DNA of 64,000 nt from Escherichia coli. GTDB taxonomy: Bacteria; Pseudomonadota; Gammaproteobacteria; Enterobacterales; Enterobacteriaceae. The DNA lies in assembly GCF_003334815.1 (NCBI RefSeq), contig NZ_QOWO01000009.1. One strand, written 5' to 3'. Positions 32,115 to 55,720 of this stretch are shown in pieces; positions within the stretch are counted from its first letter, which is position 1; every line of letters starts with the position of its first letter. The notes under the pieces were generated by a model. That model was not told the DNA's origin, did not search any database, and saw nothing but the letters and a program-made list of their open reading frames with translations. The position numbers and the translations under genes are program-made.

Positions 32115-34007
32115 TTACATCACCAGACGGCGAATGTCAGACAGCGTGTTGTTAATGATGGTAATGAAACGGGCACCATCAGCACCGTCGATCACGCGGT
32201 GGTCGAAGGAGAGAGAAATCGGCAGCATCAGACGCGGCACGAACTCTTTACCATTCCACACCGGCTCCATCGCGGACTTGGAAACGCCGAGGATAGCCAC
32301 TTCCGGCGCGTTCACAATCGGCGCGAAGTGGGTAGTACCCAGGCCGCCGATGCTGGAGATGGTGAAGCAACCGCCCTGCATTTCGCCCGCAGTCAGCTTA
32401 CCGTCACGCGCTTTCTTAGAAATAGTCATCAGCTCGCGAGACAGCTCGATGATGCCTTTCTTGTTGACGTCTTTGAATACCGGAACAACCAGACCGTTCG
32501 GGGTATCCACCGCCACACCGATGTTGATGTATTTCTTCAGGGTCAGACGCTGACCGTCTTCCGACAGCGAACTATTGAAGCGAGGCATCTGCTCAAGAGC
32601 TGCAGCAACGGCTTTCATGATGAAGACAACCGGGGTGATCTTCACATCCAGCTTACGTTTCGCCGCTTCTTCGTTCTGCTGTTTACGGAACGCTTCCAAC
32701 TCGGTGATATCGGTTTTGTCGAAGTGAGTAACATGCGGGATCATTACCCAGTTACGGCTCAGGTTCGCACCAGAGATTTTCTGGATGCGGCCCAGTTCCA
32801 CTTCTTCGATTTCACCAAACTTGCTGAAGTCCACCTTCGGCCACGGCAGCATGCCAGGGATACCACCGCCAGTCGCTGCCGGAGCTGCTTCTGCACGTTT
32901 GATAGCTTCTTTCACGTAAGCCTGAACGTCTTCGCGCAGGATACGACCTTTACGGCCAGTGCCCTTCACTTTCGCAAGGTTAACACCAAACTCGCGTGCC
33001 AGACGGCGGATCAGCGGAGTCGCGTGAACATAAGCGTCGTTTTCAGCAAATTCAGATTTGCCTTCCGCTTTCGCAGCTGGTGCTGCTGCCGGGGCTTCAG
33101 CTTTTGCTGCCGGTGCCGGCGCTGCCGCTTCCTGTTTCGCAGGAGCTGCCGCAGGCGCTGCGCCTTCAACTTCGAAGATCATAATCAGCGAGCCAGTTTT
33201 CACTTTATCGCCAACGTTGACTTTCAGTTCCTTCACGACGCCTGCAAACGGCGCCGGAACTTCCATAGAAGCTTTGTCGCCTTCTACGGTGATCAGTGAC
33301 TGTTCAGCGGCAACTTTGTCGCCCACTTTCACCATCACTTCAGTCACTTCAACTTCGTCACCGCCGATATCCGGAACGTTAACTTCTTTCACGCCAGCCG
33401 CTGGTGCAGGGGCCGCTGCCGGAGCTGCTTCCTGTTTAGCGGCCGGAGCTGCCGCGCCTGCTTCACCCGCGACTTCGAAGACCATAATCAGCGAGCCGGT
33501 AGACACTTTGTCACCCACGTTCACTTTGATCTCTTTCACGGTGCCAGCAAACGGAGCCGGAACTTCCATAGAAGCCTTGTCGCCTTCTACGGTGATCAGC
33601 GACTGTTCAGCTTCAACTTTATCGCCAACTTTCACCAGGATTTCGGTCACTTCAACTTCGTCGCTGCCGATATCCGGAACGTTAACGTCTTTTGCCGCCG
33701 CAGCCGCTGGTGCTGCTGCCGGAGCTGCTTCTTTCTTCTCTTCTGCCTGAGCAGGTGCAGCGTCTGCTGCACCGTCGGCGGAATCGAAAATCATAATCAG
33801 TGCGCCGGTCTGGGTTTTATCGCCAACAGAGACTTTGATCTCTTTAACGATACCCGCCTGCGGAGACGGAACTTCCATAGAGGCTTTGTCGCCTTCTACG
33901 GTGATCAGCGACTGTTCGGCTTCAACTTTGTCGCCCACTTTGACCAGGATCTCGGTGATTTCAACTTCATCAGCCCCGATGTCCGGTACTTTGATTTCGA
34001 TAGCCAT
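32115..34007 (-). CDS. aceF: dihydrolipoamide acetyltransferase (E2 of pyruvate dehydrogenase) with three lipoyl domains
   Basis: 630-aa ORF; three repeated lipoyl domains (…[11 protein letters not shown]…) separated by Ala/Pro-rich linkers, then E3-binding and catalytic domains. Confidence 0.95.
33060..34007 (-). repeat. three tandem repeats of about 305 bp encoding the aceF lipoyl domains
   Basis: Near-identical segments (e.g. gtcgccttctacggtgatcag...) recur at about 33276, 33579 and 33888. Confidence 0.85.
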
Positions 34008-34021
34008 TATTCTTTTACCTC

Positions 34022-36685
34022 TTACGCCAGACGCGGGTTAACTTTATCTGCATCGATGTTGAATTTGGCGATTGCGTCAGCAACCACTTTCTTATCGATT
34101 TCGCCACGTTTAGCCAGTTCGCCCAGCGCCGCAACCACGACATAAGAAGCATCAACTTCGAAGTGGTGACGCAGGTTCTCACGGCTGTCGGAACGACCGA
34201 AGCCATCAGTACCCAGTACGCGGTAGTCGTCAGCCGGTACGTAAGTACGGACCTGCTCAGCGAACAGTTTCATATAGTCGGTAGATGCCACTGCCGGAGC
34301 GTCGTTCATCACCTGAGCGATATACGGAACGCGCGGAGTTTCCAGCGGGTGCAGCATGTTCCAGCGTTCACAATCCTGACCATCACGCGCCAGCTCGGTG
34401 AAGGAGGTCACGCTATAAACGTCAGAACCTACGCCGTAATCTTTCGCCAGGATCTCAGCTGCTTCACGGACGTGACGCAGGATAGAACCGGAGCCGAGCA
34501 GCTGAACTTTACCTTTGCTACCTTCAATAGTTTCGAGTTTGTAGATACCTTTACGGATACCTTCCTCAGCACCTTCCGGCATTGCCGGCATGTGGTAGTT
34601 TTCGTTCAGCGTAGTGATGTAGTAGTAAACGTTCTCTTGTTTTTCACCGTACATACGCTCCAGACCGTCATGCATGATGACAGCAACTTCGTAAGCGTAA
34701 GCCGGGTCGTAAGAGATACAGTTCGGGATAGTCAGCGACTGAATGTGGCTGTGACCATCTTCGTGCTGCAGACCTTCGCCGTTCAGGGTGGTACGACCGG
34801 AAGTACCGCCGATCAGGAAGCCACGCGCTTGCTGGTCGCCAGCCGCCCAGCACAGATCGCCAATACGCTGGAAGCCGAACATCGAGTAATAGATGTAGAA
34901 CGGGATCATCGGCAGATTGTTGGTGCTGTAAGAGGTCGCCGCTGCCAGCCAGGAACAACCTGCGCCCAGCTCGTTGATCCCTTCCTGCAGAATCTGACCT
35001 TTCTCGTCTTCTTTATAGTAAGCAACCTGCTCGCGGTCCTGCGGGGTGTACTGCTGACCGTTCGGGCTGTAAATACCAATCTGACGGAACAGACCTTCCA
35101 TACCGAAAGTACGCGCTTCGTCGGCGATGATCGGTACCAGACGATCTTTGATCGACTTGTTCTTCAGCATCACGTTCAGAGCACGAACGAAAGCGATAGT
35201 GGTAGAGATCTCTTTGCTCTGCTCTTCCAACAGCGCGCCGAAGTCTTGCAGGCTCGGCAGCTCAAGCTTCTCGGTGAAGTTCGGCTGACGGCTTGGCAGA
35301 TAACCGTGCAGTTTCTGACGCTGAGCGTGCAGATAGGTATGCTCTTCAGAACCTTCCGGGAAGGTGATGTACGGCAGTTTTTCGATATCTGCATCAGACA
35401 CCGGCACATTGAAACGGTCGCGGATATGACGCACACCGTCCATGTTCATTTTCTTAACCTGGTGCGCGATGTTTTTACCTTCAGCCGCGTCGCCCATGCC
35501 GTAACCTTTAATGGTATGAGCAAGGATTACTGTCGCTTTGCCTTTGGTTTCCTGCGCTTTCTTGAATGCAGCGTAGATTTTCTTCGGATCGTGACCACCA
35601 CGGTTCAGTGCCCAGATCTGCTCGTCAGTCCAGTCTGCAACCAGTGCTGCGGTTTCAGGATATTTACCGAAGAAGTGTTCACGAACGTACGCACCATCTT
35701 TCGATTTGAAGGTCTGGTAGTCGCCGTCAACGGTTTCGTTCATCAGCTGGATCAGTTTACCGCTGGTATCCTTACGCAGCAGTTCATCCCAACGGCTACC
35801 CCACATCACTTTGATCACGTTCCAGCCAGCACCTTCGAAGATGCCTTCCAGTTCGTTGATGATCTTGCCGTTACCGGTGACCGGGCCGTCAAGACGCTGC
35901 AGGTTACAGTTGATAACGAAGACCAGGTTATCCAGTTTTTCACGGGTAGCGATGGTGATCGCACCTTTGGATTCCGGTTCGTCCATTTCACCGTCACCGA
36001 GGAACGCGTAAACGGTTTGTTTAGAGGTATCTTTCAGGCCACGGTGTTCCAGATATTTCAGGAATTTAGCCTGGTAAATAGCACCAATCGGACCCAGACC
36101 CATAGATACGGTCGGGAACTGCCAGAATTCCGGCATCAGTTTCGGGTGCGGATAGGAAGAGAGGCCATTGCCGTGAACTTCCTGACGGAAGTTATCCAGC
36201 TGCTCCTGAGTCAGACGACCTTCCAGGAAAGCACGAGCGTACACGCCCGGGGAGATGTGGCCCTGGAAGTAAACCAGGTCGCCGCCATCCTGCTCGTTGC
36301 GTGCACGGAAGAAGTGGTTAAAGCACACATCATAAATGGTTGCGGAAGACTGGAAGGACGCCATATGGCCGCCCAGTTCGAGGTCTTTTTTCGACGCACG
36401 CAGCACCGTCATGATGGCGTTCCAGCGGATAGCTGAACGAATACGGCGTTCCAGTTCCAGATTACCCGGATACTCCGGTTGTTCTTCAACGGGGATGGTG
36501 TTGATGTAGTTGCTGATACCTGTGCCTGCGGCTACGTTTACACCGCCTTTGCGGGCTTCAGCAAGCAGTTGGTCGATCAGATACTGAGCACGCTCAACAC
36601 CTTCTTCACGGATGACCGATTCGATCGCCTGGAGCCAGTCGCGAGTTTCGATCGGATCCACGTCATTTGGGAAACGTTCTGACAT
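34022..36685 (-). CDS. aceE: pyruvate dehydrogenase E1 component
   Basis: 887-aa ORF matching the homodimeric E1 ([24 protein letters not shown]...). Confidence 0.95.
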
Positions 36686-37641: not shown

Positions 37642-37658
37642 AATTGGTCTTACCAATT
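37642..37658. promoter_or_regulatory. PdhR operator palindrome aattggtcttaccaatt
   Basis: Perfect 7-bp inverted repeat (AATTGGT-N3-ACCAATT) read about 30 bp upstream of the pdhR start; matches the known PdhR box in the pdhR-aceEF-lpd promoter. Confidence 0.8.
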
Positions 37659-38062
37659 TCATGTCTGTGACGCTAAAGTAACAAAGTATTCACCTTATGT
37701 CCATACAGGTTTTGATTGAAATCATGAAACTGTGCACATTTTAACAACTTGACATATATAACGTTTCAAAGTTGTAACTATGCACAAATGTAGACTTTAC
37801 GTAGGAAAGGAGTTTTTTAACGATTATTAAACTATAAAAATCCGAATTGAACCGATTCACTTACCAATTTTGTGATTTTTAATTCAATTAAAACGAATTT
37901 AAATTCATTCTACATATTGAGAGGGGTTGAGGCTGAGCTTTACAAACGGTTTCTTTTTAAGCAACTCATCTTCAACCATGCATAAAGCGGGTGCATTCGC
38001 TGCCGCATACCATTATTCTTGATCTGACGGAAGTCTTTTTGTAACAATTCAAACTTCTTTGA

Positions 38063-38080
38063 TGTAAACAAATTAATACA
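38063..38080. promoter_or_regulatory. candidate TyrR box (tgtaaa-N6-aataca) in the aroP promoter region
   Basis: Partial match to the TGTAAA-N6-TTTACA consensus about 70-90 bp upstream of the aroP start; aroP is known to be TyrR-regulated, but the exact site is not verified here. Confidence 0.3.
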
Positions 38081-38150
38081 ACAAACGGAATTGCAAACTT
38101 ACACACGCATCACTGCGTAGATCAAAAAAACAACCACCGCACGAGGTTTC

Positions 38151-39524
38151 ATGATGGAAGGTCAACAGCACGGCGAGCAGCTAAAGCGCGGCCTTAAAAA
38201 CCGCCATATTCAGCTTATCGCGCTGGGTGGCGCGATAGGGACCGGGTTATTCCTGGGTAGCGCCTCCGTAATACAGTCCGCAGGGCCAGGGATTATCCTG
38301 GGTTACGCCATTGCTGGTTTTATCGCCTTTCTGATCATGCGTCAGCTGGGTGAAATGGTGGTCGAAGAACCTGTCGCAGGCTCCTTTAGCCACTTTGCTT
38401 ATAAATACTGGGGCAGTTTTGCCGGTTTCGCCTCTGGCTGGAACTACTGGGTACTGTACGTTTTAGTTGCCATGGCTGAGCTGACTGCCGTGGGTAAATA
38501 CATTCAGTTCTGGTATCCGGAAATCCCCACCTGGGTTTCTGCCGCCGTATTCTTTGTGGTGATTAACGCCATCAACCTGACCAACGTTAAAGTGTTTGGC
38601 GAGATGGAGTTCTGGTTTGCCATTATCAAAGTTATCGCGGTGGTAGCGATGATCATCTTCGGCGGCTGGCTGCTATTCAGTGGCAACGGCGGCCCGCAGG
38701 CGACCGTTAGCAACCTGTGGGATCAGGGTGGTTTCCTGCCGCACGGCTTCACCGGGCTGGTGATGATGATGGCGATTATCATGTTCTCGTTCGGTGGTCT
38801 GGAACTGGTGGGGATCACCGCAGCAGAAGCTGATAACCCGGAGCAAAGTATACCGAAAGCAACTAACCAGGTTATCTACCGCATCCTGATTTTCTATATT
38901 GGTTCGTTAGCCGTTCTGCTCTCACTGATGCCGTGGACCCGCGTTACCGCCGATACCAGTCCGTTTGTGCTGATCTTCCACGAGTTAGGCGATACCTTTG
39001 TGGCGAATGCGCTGAACATCGTGGTACTGACTGCGGCGCTCTCCGTGTACAACAGCTGCGTATATTGCAACAGCCGTATGCTGTTTGGTCTGGCACAACA
39101 GGGTAATGCGCCAAAAGCGCTGGCGTCTGTCGATAAACGTGGTGTACCAGTAAATACCATTCTGGTGTCTGCACTGGTAACGGCGTTGTGCGTACTGATT
39201 AACTACCTTGCCCCAGAGTCCGCTTTCGGACTGTTAATGGCGCTGGTGGTATCTGCACTGGTAATCAACTGGGCGATGATTAGCCTGGCGCATATGAAAT
39301 TCCGTCGCGCCAAGCAGGAACAAGGCGTGGTAACTCGCTTCCCTGCTCTGCTTTATCCGCTGGGTAACTGGATCTGCCTGCTGTTTATGGCGGCGGTACT
39401 GGTGATTATGCTGATGACCCCAGGAATGGCGATTTCGGTATACCTGATCCCGGTATGGCTGATCGTGTTAGGTATCGGCTATCTGTTTAAAGAGAAAACC
39501 GCCAAAGCCGTAAAAGCGCATTAA
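38151..39524 (+). CDS. aroP: aromatic amino acid:H+ symporter (APC family)
   Basis: 457-aa ORF with 12 TM segments (MMEGQQHGEQLKRGLKNRHIQLIALGGAIGTGLF...). Confidence 0.95.
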   Translation: MMEGQQHGEQLKRGLKNRHIQLIALGGAIGTGLFLGSASVIQSAGPGIILGYAIAGFIAFLIMRQLGEMVVEEPVAGSFSHFAYKYWGSFAGFASGWNYWVLYVLVAMAELTAVGKYIQFWYPEIPTWVSAAVFFVVINAINLTNVKVFGEMEFWFAIIKVIAVVAMIIFGGWLLFSGNGGPQATVSNLWDQGGFLPHGFTGLVMMMAIIMFSFGGLELVGITAAEADNPEQSIPKATNQVIYRILIFYIGSLAVLLSLMPWTRVTADTSPFVLIFHELGDTFVANALNIVVLTAALSVYNSCVYCNSRMLFGLAQQGNAPKALASVDKRGVPVNTILVSALVTALCVLINYLAPESAFGLLMALVVSALVINWAMISLAHMKFRRAKQEQGVVTRFPALLYPLGNWICLLFMAAVLVIMLMTPGMAISVYLIPVWLIVLGIGYLFKEKTAKAVKAH

Positions 39525-45214: not shown

Positions 45215-46258
45215 TTACAGGTTGTTGAAGATGCGGTTTTCTTGTTCCTGCACACGAATAAACGTGGTGCGCTTGGTCAGCTCTTTCAGGCGTGAAGCCC
45301 CAACGTATGTACAAGCTGAACGCAGGCCGCCCAAAATATCTCGCGCGGTATTTTCAACCGGGCCTCGCAGCGGCAGCTTAACGGTTTTACCTTCTGCTGC
45401 GCGATATTCCGCAACGCCGCCAACGTGACGTTTCATCGCAGACTCGGAGCTCATGCCGTAGAACAGCATAAATTTCTCGCCGTTCTCCTCAACGATGCGA
45501 CCGCCGCTCTCTTCGTGGCCCGCCAGCATGCCGCCAAGCATGACGAAATCGGCACCGCCGCCAAAGGCTTTCGCCACATCGCCCGGCGTGGTGCAGCCAC
45601 CATCGCTGACGATCATTCCGCCCAGACCGTGCGCAGCATCGGCACATTCGATTACCGCAGAAAGTTGCGGATAACCGACGCCTGTTTTGACGCGAGTTGT
45701 ACAAACAGAACCTGGGCCAATGCCAACTTTAACGATATCGGCACCTGAGAGGATAAGCTCCTCACACATTTCACCAGTCACTACGTTACCAGCACAAATG
45801 GTTTTGGTCGGCCACGCTTCACGCGCTTTCGCAACGAACTGCACGAAGTGTTCGGAATAACCATTCGCCACGTCAATACAAACGAAGTTTAATGCCGGGT
45901 TCAGGTCGAGAATCTGTTTAGTTTTTTCGAAATCCGCATCAGACGTACCGGTAGAAACCATCACATGTTTCAGCACATCAGCGGAAGAATTGTTGATAAA
46001 CGCTTGCCACTCTTCGACAGAATAGTGTTTATGCACAGCAGTCAAAATATCAAAAGAAGCCAGCGCAGAGGCCATAGAAAATGTGCCTACGGTGTCCATA
46101 TTTGCGGCGATAATCGGCACGCCGGACCAGCTCTGACCTGAATGTTTGAAGGTGAATTGACGTTCCAGTTCAACATCGGAACGGCTTTTAAGAGTGGAGC
46201 GTTTAGGGCGGATGAGAACGTCTTTAAAACCTAACTTCAGATCTTCTTCAATACGCAT
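45215..46258 (-). CDS. guaC: GMP reductase
   Basis: 347-aa ORF in the IMPDH/GMPR family ([29 protein letters not shown]...). Confidence 0.95.
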
Positions 46259-48717: not shown

Positions 48718-51423
48718 TTATTGCAGGCGGCCATGGCACTGCTTGTATTTTTTACCAGAACCGCACGGGCAAGGATCGTTACGTCCTACTTTGCGCTCTC
48801 CGGTTTGCGCCGCCAGTGCAGCTGCGGCTGCAGAGTCGTCATCCTGATGGCTAAGCTGCTGCATTTGCGCTAAACGCTCGGCTTCCATACGACGCTGTTG
48901 TTCCAGCTCCTCAACCTCTTCAGGCATACGTACCTGAACTTTGCTCAGCGTACTGATAACTTCATATTTCAACGACTCCAGCATCGCTGCAAACATGGAG
49001 AACGATTCACGTTTGTATTCCTGCTTCGGATCTTTCTGTGCGTAGCCACGCAGGTGGATACCCTGACGCAGATAGTCCATCGCTGCCAGGTGCTCTTTCC
49101 ACAGGGAGTCAAGCGTTTGCAGCATGACGCCTTTCTCGAAGTGACGCATCATCTCAGCACCAACCACTTCTTCTTTACGCTGATACACTTCGATGGACTG
49201 CGCCAGAATGCGCTCACGCAGCGTCTCTTCATGCAGTTCTGGTTCTTTATCCAGCCACTCGGCAATTGGCAAATCGAGGTCGAAATCGTTCTTCAGACGT
49301 TCCTGCAGCCCCGGAATATCCCACATTTCTTCCAGCGACTGTGGTGGAATGTAGGCATCAATGGTCGCTTTGAACACATCTTCACGAATGCTGTTAATGG
49401 TTTCGCTCACATCGCTGACATCCAACAGTTCGTTACGCTGGGAGTAAATGGCGCGACGCTGATCGTTAGCCACGTCATCATATTCCAGCAGTTGCTTACG
49501 AATGTCGAAGTTACGGCTTTCAACTTTACGCTGGGCGTTGGCAATCGCTTTAGTCACCCACGGGTGTTCAATGGCTTCGCCTGGCTTCATACCCAGTTTA
49601 CGCATCATGCCGGATACTCGGTCGGAAGCAAAAATACGCATCAGCGCATCTTCCATCGACAGGTAGAAACGGGAAGAACCAGCATCCCCCTGACGACCAG
49701 AACGACCGCGCAACTGGTTATCGATACGACGGGATTCGTGACGCTCGGTACCGATGATATGCAGGCCACCTGCTTCCAGTACCGCATCGTGACGTACCTG
49801 CCAGTCGGCTTTAATTTTTTCAATTTGCTCTGCGGTCGGATTTTCCAGCGCGGCAACTTCTGCCTGCCAGCTACCACCGAGCACAATATCTGTACCACGA
49901 CCCGCCATATTGGTCGCGATAGTCACCGCAGCCGGATAACCTGCCTGAGCAACAATCGCCGCTTCGTTGGCGTGGAATTTGGCGTTCAGGACGTTGTGCT
50001 TAATACCGGCTTTGGTCAGTTCGTTTGACACCAGCTCCGATTTTTCGATGGAGATAGTACCCACCAGCACCGGCTGGCCTTTCGCAGTACGTTCTTTGAT
50101 ATCTTCAATGATCGCCTGAATTTTTTCCGCTTCAGTCATGTAGACCAGGTCCGGCAGATCTTTACGAATCATTGGACGGTTGGTCGGAACAACGACGGTA
50201 TCCAGCTTGTAGATTGAGCTAAATTCGAAAGCTTCGGTATCAGCAGTACCGGTCATCCCCGCCAGTTTTTCATACAGACGGAAGTAGTTCTGGAAGGTGA
50301 TCGAAGCCAGCGTTTGGTTTTCGTTCTGGATCTGCACACCTTCTTTCGCTTCCACAGCCTGGTGCAGACCATCGGACCAGCGACGGCCCTGCATGGTACG
50401 ACCGGTGTGTTCGTCAACGATGATAACTTCACCATCTTTAACGATGTAGTCGACGTCACGGGTAAACAGCGCATGAGCGCGCAGCGCCGCCGTTACGTGG
50501 TGCATCAGCATGATGTTGGCCGGAGAGTACAGAGACTCCCCTTCATCCATGATGCCCTCTTTCACCAGCAGTTCTTCAATCAGCACCAGACCACGTTCGG
50601 TCAGGTTCACCTGGCGAGATTTTTCGTCCACCGAGAAGTGGCCTTCGCCCTGGAAGGTTTCGGAGTCTTCTTTTTCCTGACGGATCAGGTGCGGAATAAT
50701 TTTATTCACGCGTTTATACATTTCCGAGCTGTCTTCTGCCGGGCCGGAAATGATCAGCGGTGTACGCGCTTCATCGATCAGGATGGAGTCCACTTCGTCC
50801 ACCAGCGCATAGTGCAGTTTACGCTGTACACGTTCTTCAGGGCTGAACGCCATGTTGTCGCGCAGGTAGTCAAAGCCGTATTCGTTGTTCGTACCGTAAG
50901 TGATGTCAGCTGCGTAAGCTTCGCGCTTTGCCGGTGCTGGCATGCCCGGCAGGTTGATACCGACAGTCAGGCCAAGGAATTCAAACAGCGGACGGTTGTT
51001 TTCGGCGTCACGTTGCGCCAGGTAGTCGTTGACGGTAACTACGTGCACGCCTTTACCGGTTAGTGCGTTCAGGTAAGCAGGCAGCGTTGCGGTCAGGGTT
51101 TTTCCTTCACCGGTACGCATTTCGGCGATGCAGCGTTCGTTAAGAACCATACCGCCGAGTAACTGAACGTCGAAGTGACGCATACCAAAGACGCGCTTAC
51201 TTGCCTCACGTACCACGGCGAAAGCTTCCGGGATCAGATTTTCCAGCACTTCGCCTTTTTCCAGACGTGCACGAAACTCTGCGGTTTTCCCTTTCAGTTC
51301 TTCGTCGGAGAGTTTTTCCATCTCCGGTTCCATGGCATTGATGATGTTGACCACTTTGCGCATCCGGCGCAGGGTGCGATCGTTACGACTACCGAAAACT
51401 TTAGTTAACAATTTGATTAGCAT
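48718..51423 (-). CDS. secA: preprotein translocase ATPase SecA
   Basis: 901-aa ORF with DEAD-like motor domains and C-terminal zinc-binding [14 protein letters not shown]. Confidence 0.97.
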
Positions 51424-52227: not shown

Positions 52228-53166
<939 letters not shown>

Positions 53167-53245
53167 CTATCCAACCGAAGTGTACTATACATTCGGCGGG
53201 CCAGTTTAGCACAAAGAGCCTCGAAACCCAAATTCCAGTCAATTC

Positions 53246-54397
53246 TTAATCAGCTTGCTTACGCAGGAATGCTGGGATATCCAGATAATCCGGCTCTTTC
53301 GCAGTTTGCGGCGCATTGTCATTCACGACTTTAGCAACCGGCTTCTGCTCCTGGGTCAGCGGAGCCATCCCATGCTGCTGGTAGCGATCCATCACTGGCT
53401 GCTGAACCTGCTTATTGGTCACCAGAGTGATTTCAGGACGTTTGTCCATGCCGATACCTGTCGCAACAACGGTTACGCGCAGCTCGTCATTCATATCCGG
53501 GTCAAGAGAAGTACCGATAACCACAGTCGCGTTGTCGGAAGCAAATGCACGGATGGTGTTACCTACCGTTTCGAACTCATCCAGACGCAGGTCGAAGCCC
53601 GCCGTGATGTTAACCAGCACGCCGCGCGCGCCAGACAGGTCGATATCTTCCAGCAGCGGAGAAGAGATAGCCATTTCAGCAGCTTCTTCCGCACGGTCTT
53701 CACCGCTCGCCACGCCAGAACCCATCATTGCGTAGCCCATCTCAGACATTACGGTGCGTACGTCTGCAAAGTCCACGTTCATCAAACCCGGACGAGTAAT
53801 CAGTTCAGCGATACCTTGCACAGCGCCTTTCAGTACATCGTTCGCTGCGCCAAACGCATCCAGCAGGGAGATACCGCGGCCCAGAACTTTCAGCAGTTTG
53901 TCGTTCGGGATAGTGATCAGAGAGTCCACATGCTTGGACAGTTCAGTGATCCCCTGCTCCGCGAATGCCATACGCTTCTTGCCTTCAAAGTTGAAAGGCT
54001 TAGTGACGACAGCAACGGTCAGGATACCCAAATCTTTTGCCACTTCAGCGACGACTGGTGCTGCACCTGTACCGGTACCACCACCCATACCCGCAGCAAT
54101 AAAGACCATGTCTGCACCTTCCAGCGCCGCACGCAATGCATCGCGATCCTCATCAGCCGCATTGCGGCCAACTTCTGGATTAGCGCCAGCGCCCAGTCCT
54201 TTGGTGATACCGCTACCGATTTGAATCGTCTGTCCAACCGCTGTTTTACGCAGCGCTTGTGCATCGGTATTTACCGCGAAGAATTCAACACCTTCAATGC
54301 GCTCGCGCACCATGTGTTCAACAGCATTACCGCCGCCGCCGCCGACGCCGATGACTTTAATCACCGCGTCATTGGTAAGTTCCATTGGTTCAAACAT
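53246..54397 (-). CDS. ftsZ: cell division GTPase FtsZ
   Basis: 383-aa ORF with the tubulin signature GGGTGTG. Confidence 0.98.
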
Positions 54398-54457
54398 AGT
54401 TTCTCTCCGATTTGTGCCTGTCGCCTGAGGCCGTAATCATCGTCGGCCTCATAAAAA

Positions 54458-55720
54458 TTAAAACTCTTTTCGCAGCCAACTATTGAGTCGCTTGATCCAC
54501 GAGCCAACTGATGCTGTAACACGTTTTTCTACTTCAGCTTCACCGTTAAGATGTGACTCTTTCCCATAGTGAAGCAATCCCACCGCCGTCGAATAATACG
54601 GCTCCTGAGCATAATCCGTTAAACCGGTAATGTTCAGCGGCGCGCCGATACGCACTTGCGTATGAAACACGCGCTGAGCACAGGCTGCAAGACCTTCGAT
54701 CTGCGCTGCGCCACCGGTTAATACAATGCCTGCCGCCAGGTGATGTTTAACCCCTTGTTGGCGAAGCTTTTCCTGCAACTGCAATATCTCTTCGTTGACC
54801 AGGTTGAGCAGCTCGGTATAGCGCGGCTCGATCACCTCTGCCAGTGTCTGACGTTGCAGACTCCGTGGCGGACGACCACCTACGCTCGGCACTTCCACGC
54901 TCTCATCTTTTCCAACGATGGAACCCAGCGCACAACCGTGGCGAACTTTAATCGCTTCGGCGTCGCTTGGCGGCGTGCCAAAGGCGTAAGCGATATCACT
55001 GGTCACGACATTGCCAGCATAAGGAATTACCTTAGTGTGGCGCAATGCCCCACCGGTATAAACGGCGATATCCATTGTACCACCACCGATATCGACGACG
55101 CAGACACCCAGTTCACGTTCATCTTCCGTCAATACCGAATAACTTGATGCCAGTCCGGCAAATATCAGTTGGTCAACTTTCAGCCCACAACGTTCAACCG
55201 CTTTGACGATGTTTTTCGCCATATCGTTGTGACATGTGATCAGGTGCACTTTTGCCTGCATCCGCACGCCCGAAAGTCCTACCGGATTCTTGATCCCTTC
55301 CTGATAGTCAATCGCATACTCTTGCGGGATCACATGCAGCACACGATGCTCATCGCGCACACGCACCGATTTCGCGGTATGGACGACGTTTTCCACATCT
55401 TCTTGCGTCACTTCTTCTTCAGAAATAGGCACCATACCAATTTCATTCTGGCAGCTGATGTGCTTACCAGAAAGCGCCAGATATACCGAAGAGATCTGAC
55501 AATCTGCCATCAATTCTGCCTGGTCAATGGCGCGTTGTACGCACTTGACCACGGATTCGAGGTCGTTCACCCCGCCTTTATCCATACCACGCGACGGGCA
55601 GCTGCCCACGCCAATGATATTGACCATACCGTCGGGCAGAACTTCCCCTACTAAAGCGGCAACCTTCGCGGTACCAATCTCCAGTCCTACTACCAGTTTT
55701 CTGTCCGTCGCCTTGATCAT
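54458..55720 (-). CDS. ftsA: cell division protein FtsA (actin-like ATPase)
   Basis: 420-aa ORF matching FtsA. Confidence 0.97.

Follow-up and report, generated by a model that had tools for sequence, protein, structure and literature searches.

Long antisense open reading frames opposite ftsZ, aceE, acnB, and secA of Escherichia coli as probable by-products of codon bias

Do the very long open reading frames (ORFs) on the strand opposite ftsZ, aceE, acnB, and secA of Escherichia coli encode proteins, or do they only reflect the codons of the genes that they face? We addressed this in a stretch of 64,000 nucleotides, here called the window, which is the 2-minute region of an E. coli K-12-type chromosome in reverse-complemented orientation. 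Many E. coli chromosomes match its ftsZ-side segment with 100% identity. The whole window is 99.98 to 99.99% identical to a K-12-like RefSeq chromosome, from whose annotation the gene identities were taken. The gene order is pcnB ... acnB, lpdA, aceF, aceE ... secA, secM, lpxC, ftsZ, ftsA ... mraY. In the RefSeq annotation of the near-identical chromosome, the strand opposite ftsZ, aceE, acnB, secA, and the other genes concerned carries no features at all. The four sense genes are as follows.

53246-54397, minus strand: ftsZ, sense gene
34022-36685, minus strand: aceE, sense gene, with the strongest codon bias among the 55 window genes
25490-28087, minus strand: acnB, sense gene
48718-51423, minus strand: secA, sense gene

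The initial annotation had pointed to antisense ORFs over these four genes, and all of its coordinates agreed with mechanically produced ORF lists. Its four entries stand, but the list was incomplete, because five further ORFs of the same kind (207 to 409 aa) had been overlooked. These are the last five lines below.

53255-54436, plus strand: ftsZ antisense ORF, 393 aa, TTG start, stop-free, codon-opposite frame
34163-36436, plus strand: aceE antisense ORF, 757 aa, codon-opposite frame
26408-27520, plus strand: acnB antisense ORF, 370 aa, codon-opposite frame
48898-50028, plus strand: secA antisense ORF, 376 aa, codon-opposite frame, facing secA codons 466-842
32070-33299, plus strand: aceF antisense ORF, 409 aa, codon-opposite frame
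30339-31196, plus strand: lpdA antisense ORF, 285 aa, codon-opposite frame
25457-26305, plus strand: second acnB antisense ORF, 282 aa, codon-opposite frame
50314-51063, plus strand: second secA antisense ORF, 249 aa, codon-opposite frame
19545-20168, minus strand: gcd antisense ORF, 207 aa, codon-opposite frame

The 393-aa ORF ends 39 nt past the ftsZ start codon and corresponds to MG1655 105,266-106,447 (minus strand), with its TTG at 106447. The 757-aa ORF lies inside an open run of 803 codons that follows a TCA at aceE codon 84, and the 370-aa ORF lies inside an open run bounded by acnB codons 190 and 595. Of ten long antisense ORFs, nine share the codon-opposite frame (frame -1), and only 33058-33750 does not. 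In this register, position 1 of the antisense codon faces position 3 of the sense codon, and the stops TAA, TAG, and TGA are the reverse complements of sense TTA (Leu), CTA (Leu), and TCA (Ser). Because frame -1 stops are possible only opposite these three codons, the openness of the frame is set solely by their usage in the sense gene. We refer to them as breaking codons and count them among the Leu plus Ser codons of each gene. The longest open run in a gene is the spacing between its breaking codons.

Breaking codons were scarce in the genes with long antisense ORFs: 0/41 Leu plus Ser codons in ftsZ, 1/62 in aceF, 2/113 in aceE, 2/48 in lpdA, 5/124 in acnB, and 7/126 in secA. The corresponding counts were 18/66 in ddlB and 12/45 in murG. 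Averaged over the window, TTA and CTA together make up 15.9% of Leu codons and TCA makes up 12.0% of Ser codons. The Leu codons of ftsZ are CTG (24), CTT (2), and TTG (3), and its Ser codons are TCT (7), TCC (3), and AGC (2). This kind of choice is usual in highly expressed E. coli genes.

If all genes followed window-average usage, about 6 breaking codons would be predicted for ftsZ, and the probability of finding none is 0.0014. About 16 would be predicted for aceE, and 2 were observed. A simulation with the same usage gave 0.20 genes with an open run of at least 350 codons against 5 observed (P<0.0005). Therefore, the long runs are not a coincidence. The fraction of breaking codons fell with codon bias measured on other amino acids (Spearman correlation of -0.61 to -0.62, P<1e-6). 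Among the 55 window genes, aceE, lpdA, aceF, acnB, and secA took the first five places for bias. ftsZ ranked between 7 and 17 on a general index and 2 of 55 for preference among the nonbreaking Leu and Ser codons. The fraction also fell as published sense mRNA abundance rose (rho -0.46, P=0.012, n=29; abundances from PMC7373196 Table S1c, which covers 29 window genes). ftsZ was fourth of these 29 by sense RPKM.

We then asked how much of the scarcity is reproduced by a leave-one-out logistic model fitted on the 55 genes, in which bias was taken from amino acids other than Leu and Ser (a PCA axis or Fop). It reproduced the counts of aceE, aceF, lpdA, acnB, and secA (P between 0.10 and 0.68). 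ftsZ was a mild outlier, with 3.2 to 4.8 breaking codons expected and 0 observed (P between 0.006 and 0.036). With Fop as the predictor, it had a lower P value than any other of the 55 genes, but this lost significance after correction for 55 genes. The model was overdispersed (1.44), and preference among nonbreaking Leu and Ser codons, as a second predictor, added nothing beyond Fop.

In bias-aware simulations, about 2 genes with runs of at least 350 codons were expected and 5 were observed (P of about 0.01). For runs of at least 200 codons, 7.5 genes were expected and 10 were observed (P of about 0.11). Per-gene run-length P values under this null ranged from 0.01 to 0.44, with aceE at about 0.01 to 0.02 and ftsZ at about 0.03 to 0.04. 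A small residual excess of long runs therefore remains under this crude 55-gene model. The model overshoots breaking codons in the most biased genes (for aceE, 4.5% predicted against 1.8 to 3.5% in five species), and this accounts for at least part of the excess.

A protein-coding frame should persist in relatives, and conservation of the antisense frames was a check proposed in the initial annotation. ftsZ loci were taken from 80 species representatives, 79 of which had a complete ftsZ. The antisense frame was fully open in none of the 79 other species. Some had a single break: one TCA in Escherichia albertii, one TTA in a Citrobacter, and one TCA in a divergent lineage labelled "E. coli." The 21 closest Enterobacteriaceae averaged 1.7 breaking codons in ftsZ, a mean at which the Poisson probability of zero is about 0.18. 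The breaks varied by species and fell at codons 7, 49, 88, 92, 123, 154, 159, 189, 218, 297, and 378. Across species, ftsZ gained breaking codons as GC3 dropped, from 1 to 4 at a GC3 of 0.5 to 0.7 to between 29 and 35 at a GC3 of about 0.1. A GTDB record labelled "E. coli" (L068) was reassigned to a divergent Escherichia lineage, as all 5,425 E. coli genomes compared were just 90 to 95% identical to its ftsZ allele.

The frame is also broken within E. coli. In strain E92, for which the whole allele was read, ftsZ codon 254 is CTA instead of CTG, which places a stop in the antisense frame and leaves FtsZ identical. An exact 61-mer with this CTA was found in 149 of 5,426 complete E. coli genomes. 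The genomes with this allele come from dogs, pigs, and humans. The 61-mers for TTA at codon 123 and TCA at codon 159, taken from alleles of relatives, were found in none of the complete E. coli genomes. These negatives are uninformative because ftsZ diversity within E. coli is 1% or less. Four divergent E. coli ftsZ alleles, that of E92 among them, encode an identical FtsZ, and their antisense translations are altered at 8 to 13 residues.

The other frames were no more stable. The aceE antisense frame was open in five other E. coli strains, in which 22 to 33 of its translated residues differed and AceE was 100% identical. It was also open in Klebsiella and broken in the three others of four other genera (at codons 474 and 480 in Salmonella, 650 in [Pantoea] beijingensis, and 801 in Raoultella). 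Breaking codons in acnB are gained and lost from strain to strain within E. coli. In each of the five other strains sampled, acnB codon 244 is TCA instead of TCT, which interrupts the 370-aa ORF. The same five strains have lost the CTA at acnB codon 595, and their open runs are quite different, at 334 to 621 codons. The 376-codon stretch of secA was open in 6 of 37 orthologues of the same length and was broken in E. albertii and in Escherichia lineage L068. The whole aceF antisense frame was open in Salmonella, Klebsiella, and Raoultella. Evidently, such frames appear and vanish wherever TTA, CTA, and TCA are rare.

Substitution patterns pointed the same way. For ftsZ and secA, dN/dS was 0.004 to 0.05 in the sense frame and 1.1 to 4.0 in the antisense frame. 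The antisense translations of these two genes were 59 to 87% identical in comparisons where the true proteins were 93 to 99.7% identical; for FtsZ itself, the range was 97 to 99.5%. The fraction of synonymous codon differences in ftsZ (0.16 to 0.45) was no lower than in ftsA, lpxC, ddlB, murC, or secA. Therefore, the silent sites of ftsZ are under no extra constraint. Noncoding frame -1 ORFs, the one opposite dnaK included, have been described with the same pattern (10.1101/724807). On this check, then, the expectation of a by-product held: the antisense frames were not conserved and showed no purifying selection, and ftsZ had no excess of synonymous constraint.

Signals for expression of the 393-aa ORF were sparse. 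The 20 nt before its TTG at 53255 (ccagtcaattcttaatcagc) contain no Shine-Dalgarno-like sequence. ATG occurs in frame only twice, at 53372 (MG1655 106330) and 53930. A GGAG precedes the ATG at 53372 by 7 nt, quite possibly by chance. A promoter and terminator scan of positions 52900-54700 found no sigma-70-like site on the plus strand.

The composition of the antisense translations is atypical (high Arg, His, Phe, Thr, and Gln; low Lys, Pro, Met, and Glu). A Pfam search of these translations returned only noise (best i-E of 0.067), and the 757-aa aceE translation had no Pfam match even at an E value of 10 or less. A search of NCBIfam gave a single match, at 17.5 bits against a cutoff of 751. 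Five translations (ftsZ, aceE, acnB, secA, and aceF) had no exact match in a collection of 15 billion proteins, a look-up that excludes only that precise sequence and start choice.

Published expression surveys were also searched. None of the six genes is among the 216 E. coli antisense candidates with Ribo-seq support of Zehentner et al. or in its 18 supplements. They had no match in the supplement of one small-ORF ribosome-profiling preprint, which may index by coordinate. A preprint on 660 antisense RNAs yielded nothing on these genes.

Antisense RNA does exist at ftsZ. The cis-antisense RNA StfZ was reportedly first described by Dewar and Donachie in 1993. It and a second source of antisense RNA lie in the window as follows.

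54203-54754, plus strand: StfZ cis-antisense RNA, mapped from published coordinates (PMC9628754)
53333-53394, no strand assigned: cluster of 21- to 22-bp dsRNAs captured with RNase III/p19, MG1655 106308-106369 (PMC7373196 Table S3)

According to PMC9628754, StfZ transcripts begin at +9, +117, or +195 of ftsZ, and all of them end 357 nt before the ATG. In the window, these isoforms start at 54389, 54281, and 54203 and share a 3' end at 54754. Their mapped lengths of 366, 474, and 552 nt are exactly those published (PMC9628754), and the AATAATA and CTCTCC motifs of StfZ were located where that paper places them. The overlap with the 1,182-nt ORF is limited to its last 48 to 234 nt and does not include the ORF start. 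The StfZ authors reported that every frame of this RNA contains stops and that it lacks a ribosome-binding site (PMC9628754). We considered whether the ORF at 53255-54436 might be StfZ and rejected this, the shared stretch being 234 nt or less. Thus, the earlier statement that antisense transcription of ftsZ had been reported was borne out by StfZ (PMC9628754), yet this RNA covers no more than the last 234 nt of the ORF.

The second source is at the other end of the gene. Huang et al. reported a p19-captured 21-bp dsRNA at MG1655 106346-106369 (sense strand, 99.9 RPM; antisense strand, 15.4 RPM; PMC7373196). This main ftsZ dsRNA ranks high in their exponential-phase list and has two adjacent 22-bp dsRNAs (PMC7373196). 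Its antisense strand is 53335-53355 of the window (plus strand). Therefore, an antisense RNA is also made across the 3' portion of ftsZ, where it falls within the 5' portion of the ORF. dsRNAs are listed as well in ftsL, ftsI, ftsW, murC, ddlB, ftsQ, ftsA, secM, aceE, and aceF (PMC7373196).

The same data allowed antisense RNA levels to be compared with frame openness. Antisense reads amounted to 1.3% of sense reads in ftsZ, 1.4% in aceE, 2.1% in secA, and 0.5% in acnB, and to 1.2% in ddlB and 1.7% in murC, which have no long antisense ORF (PMC7373196 data). The overall range was about 0.4 to 2% with or without such an ORF, and antisense RNA level and frame openness were uncorrelated (rho -0.15, P=0.44). 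These reads are pervasive transcription and not a signature of long ORFs. StfZ and the dsRNA-forming 3' RNA are best read as noncoding or pervasive transcripts unrelated to the ORF.

We conclude, with a probability of roughly 0.93, that codon bias in highly expressed genes has produced these antisense ORFs as a by-product and that they are frame -1 shadow ORFs rather than genes. The initial annotation had favored this reading, which now draws support from the frame geometry, the codon counts, the trends with bias and mRNA level, and the missing conservation and selection. In the mechanism that we propose, TTA, CTA, and TCA are disfavored in E. coli, and translational selection would remove them from highly expressed genes. 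The few left in ftsZ, aceE, aceF, lpdA, acnB, and secA would leave the opposite frame stop-free for hundreds of codons. We infer that the three codons are avoided because of translational selection on the sense gene and that no functional protein is made from the frames. By-product, noise-level translation, and functional protein are not mutually exclusive as readings.

Other causes of the openness fit less well. Base composition or mutation bias at the third position (G+C), rather than selection linked to expression, would explain why breaking codons in ftsZ rise so steeply across species as GC3 falls. But neighboring genes in the window differ 10-fold or more (18/66 in ddlB and 12/45 in murG against 0/41 in ftsZ), a contrast by which this explanation is largely refuted. 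Average usage yields only 0.2 long ORFs against the 5 observed, and the effect follows mRNA level, so we regard base composition as a very unlikely cause. Pure coincidence, with no underlying cause, could appeal to the fact that each gene alone is merely a mild outlier under the bias-aware model. Five genes with the same open frame, all among the most codon biased of the window, and P<0.0005 under average usage leave it a negligible probability.

Two further explanations concern what the frames might do. One is that at least one frame, with that of ftsZ the likeliest candidate, is a genuine protein-coding gene in antisense overlap, like those reported in EHEC and Pseudomonas. It could call on a frame that is open across the full gene (P of 0.006 to 0.036 for zero breaking codons under the bias model), on antisense RNA at both ends of ftsZ, on a GGAG located 7 nt ahead of the in-frame ATG 53372, and on the argument of some authors that long antisense ORFs exceed expectation (PMC3454372). 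Nevertheless, we consider it highly improbable. The P value for ftsZ is not significant once corrected for 55 genes, and the frame has breaks in every one of the 79 other species as well as in 149 genomes of E. coli. The dN/dS of the antisense frame is 1 or more with no excess synonymous constraint, and 8 to 33 antisense residues vary among E. coli alleles whose FtsZ or AceE is identical. Moreover, the TTG has no Shine-Dalgarno sequence, 52900-54700 has no sigma-70-like promoter on the plus strand, the known transcripts do not span the ORF, no protein family matches, and the ORFs are missing from the list of 216 Ribo-seq candidates and its 18 supplements. We would likewise give very long odds to a young, lineage-specific E. 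coli protein or peptide opposite ftsZ, made for example from ATG 53372 on the hot-spot RNA and aiding control of cell division. In a milder variant, the 3' antisense RNA may be a second cis-regulator of ftsZ or lpxC, beside StfZ. The other explanation is noise-level (pervasive) translation of parts of the antisense RNA into short, nonfunctional, and unconserved peptides, for example from ATG 53372. Antisense reads of about 1.3% of sense in ftsZ, the dsRNA hot spot at 53333-53394, the weak GGAG upstream of that ATG, and published pervasive antisense translation (PMC7457138) are consistent with it. However, no transcription start site is known upstream of 53372, RNase III cleaves RNA paired with abundant sense mRNA, and these genes had no match in the one small-ORF profiling supplement, which is possibly indexed by coordinate. 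We therefore think such translation unlikely, though less so than a functional gene.

The shadow-ORF reading carries a caution. Very long ORFs opposite highly expressed genes are tempting candidates for hidden genes. They can be told apart quickly from true overlapping genes by frame geometry, counts of TTA, CTA, and TCA, and breaks in near relatives and natural strains. A ready-made natural knockout of the antisense frame is present in the 149 complete E. coli genomes that have CTA at ftsZ codon 254. If the frames were coding, the view of ftsZ and aceE as single-product loci would be overturned, and nothing here points in that direction.

How do these ORFs compare with known systems? StfZ shares the strand and the locus with the 393-aa ORF but is a different thing. 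It is a noncoding RNA of 366 to 552 nt over the 5' end of ftsZ, the intergenic region, and 297 nt of ftsA, and it lacks the ORF start and about 80% of the ORF length. Pervasive antisense translation has been reported in bacteria (PMC7457138). Antisense overlapping genes have experimental support in E. coli O157:H7 and P. aeruginosa: laoB (PMC5810103), pop (PMC7103648), and olg1 and olg2 (PMC8850804). As summarized in these reports, candidates of this type have evidence from transcription and ribosome profiling and, in some cases, phenotypes or purifying selection. The ORFs in the window resemble them in being long and embedded antisense in an annotated gene. Unlike them, the frames in the window fail the tests of conservation and selection, and evidence for expression of a full ORF was not found.

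A closer parallel is the antisense ORF of dnaK, which was once annotated as an NAD-specific glutamate dehydrogenase (Pfam PF10712) and is discussed in 10.1101/724807. Like it, the ftsZ case is in frame -1 opposite most of a conserved, highly expressed gene. The apparent conservation of the dnaK shadow ORF is inherited from the sense gene (10.1101/724807), and this is why shadow ORFs can enter protein databases. The dnaK ORF recurs in hundreds of genomes and did enter them, whereas the translations from ftsZ, aceE, acnB, secA, and aceF in the window have neither a Pfam family nor an exact copy in the collection of 15 billion proteins.

The phenomenon seen here is already known. Shadow ORFs have been on record since the 1990s (PMC3454372, citing Merino 1994 and Silke 1997), and both the mechanism of frame -1 stops and shadow ORFs due to codon bias have been published (PMC3454372; 10.1101/724807). 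An excess of long antisense ORFs over expectation has been argued for (PMC3454372), and the small residual excess over our crude model echoes the one reported by Mir et al. As with the published frame -1 shadow ORFs, those in the window lie opposite highly expressed, biased genes, are not conserved, and have an antisense Ka/Ks of 1 or more. Nothing essential differs between them, and the ORFs in the window are further examples, found in DNA of the E. coli K-12 type.

In the antisense frame whose codons lie directly opposite those of the gene, a stop arises only opposite a sense TTA, CTA, or TCA codon. The few such codons that remain in the highly biased genes were clustered toward the 5' ends and were conserved (window genes and comparison records L087 to L095):

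aceE, codons 2, 5, and 18
acnB, codons 2, 46, and 49
secA, codons 2 and 6
lpdA, codons 28 and 199

The aceE codon 2 was TCA in all five species examined, and both lpdA codons (TTA-28 and TCA-199) were present in five of five species. The three acnB codons (CTA-2, TTA-46, and TTA-49) were found in 6/6 E. coli alleles. Therefore, the clustering and conservation suggest that rare codons are retained position-specifically in highly biased genes.

Two long ORFs lie in an antisense frame other than the codon-opposite one, and the TTA/CTA/TCA rule does not account for them:

33058-33750 (+), 230-aa ORF within aceF
53754-54224 (+), 156-aa ORF within ftsZ

The longer one is located in the part of aceF that encodes the lipoyl domain repeats and the linkers rich in Ala and Pro.

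The comparison records also revealed strain differences. An island between pdhR and aroP was present in three of five other E. coli strains and missing from the window:

L088, L089, and L091, ~13000-17200, pdhR-aroP island
window, ~37644-38150, equivalent site

Its genes include the type VI secretion protein TssD (Hcp), DNase toxin fragments fused to or following TssD, and bacteriocin immunity genes in repeated copies. The window guaC (45215-46258) is an intact 347-aa ORF. The laboratory strain TUM23337 is otherwise near-identical, but its guaC (L001 12216-13259) is a pseudogene by annotation, interrupted by an internal stop.

The ftsZ gene of L068 (NZ_JAATUR010000005.1, labelled Escherichia coli strain SCPM-O-B-8794) had only 94.6% nucleotide identity to that of the window. 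Among 5,425 complete E. coli genomes, no ftsZ allele was >95% identical to that of L068. Rather than E. coli proper, this record probably represents a divergent lineage of Escherichia. The E. coli genome searches also returned full-length ftsZ and aceE matches in three records typed as plasmids, which are probably either replicons assigned to the wrong type or very large elements derived from the chromosome.

In published E. coli double-stranded RNA (dsRNA) data (PMC7373196 Table S1c), antisense reads as a share of sense reads were 144% for yacH, 71% for mutT, 51% for aroP, and 51% for hofC, far above the ~1% measured in genes with long antisense ORFs. Regions with a high antisense share were:

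28442-30295, yacH
38151-39524, aroP
from 47847, mutT region

The same study's main text does not mention ftsZ. In its supplements, RNase III/p19-captured dsRNAs form an abundant cluster in the 3' part of this gene:

window 53333-53394 (MG1655 106308-106369), ftsZ dsRNA cluster

The main 21-mer of this cluster was recovered at 99.9 RPM from the sense strand and 15.4 RPM from the antisense strand (PMC7373196). This cluster implies that an antisense RNA distinct from StfZ, the published cis-antisense RNA of ftsZ, is present over the 3' part of the gene.
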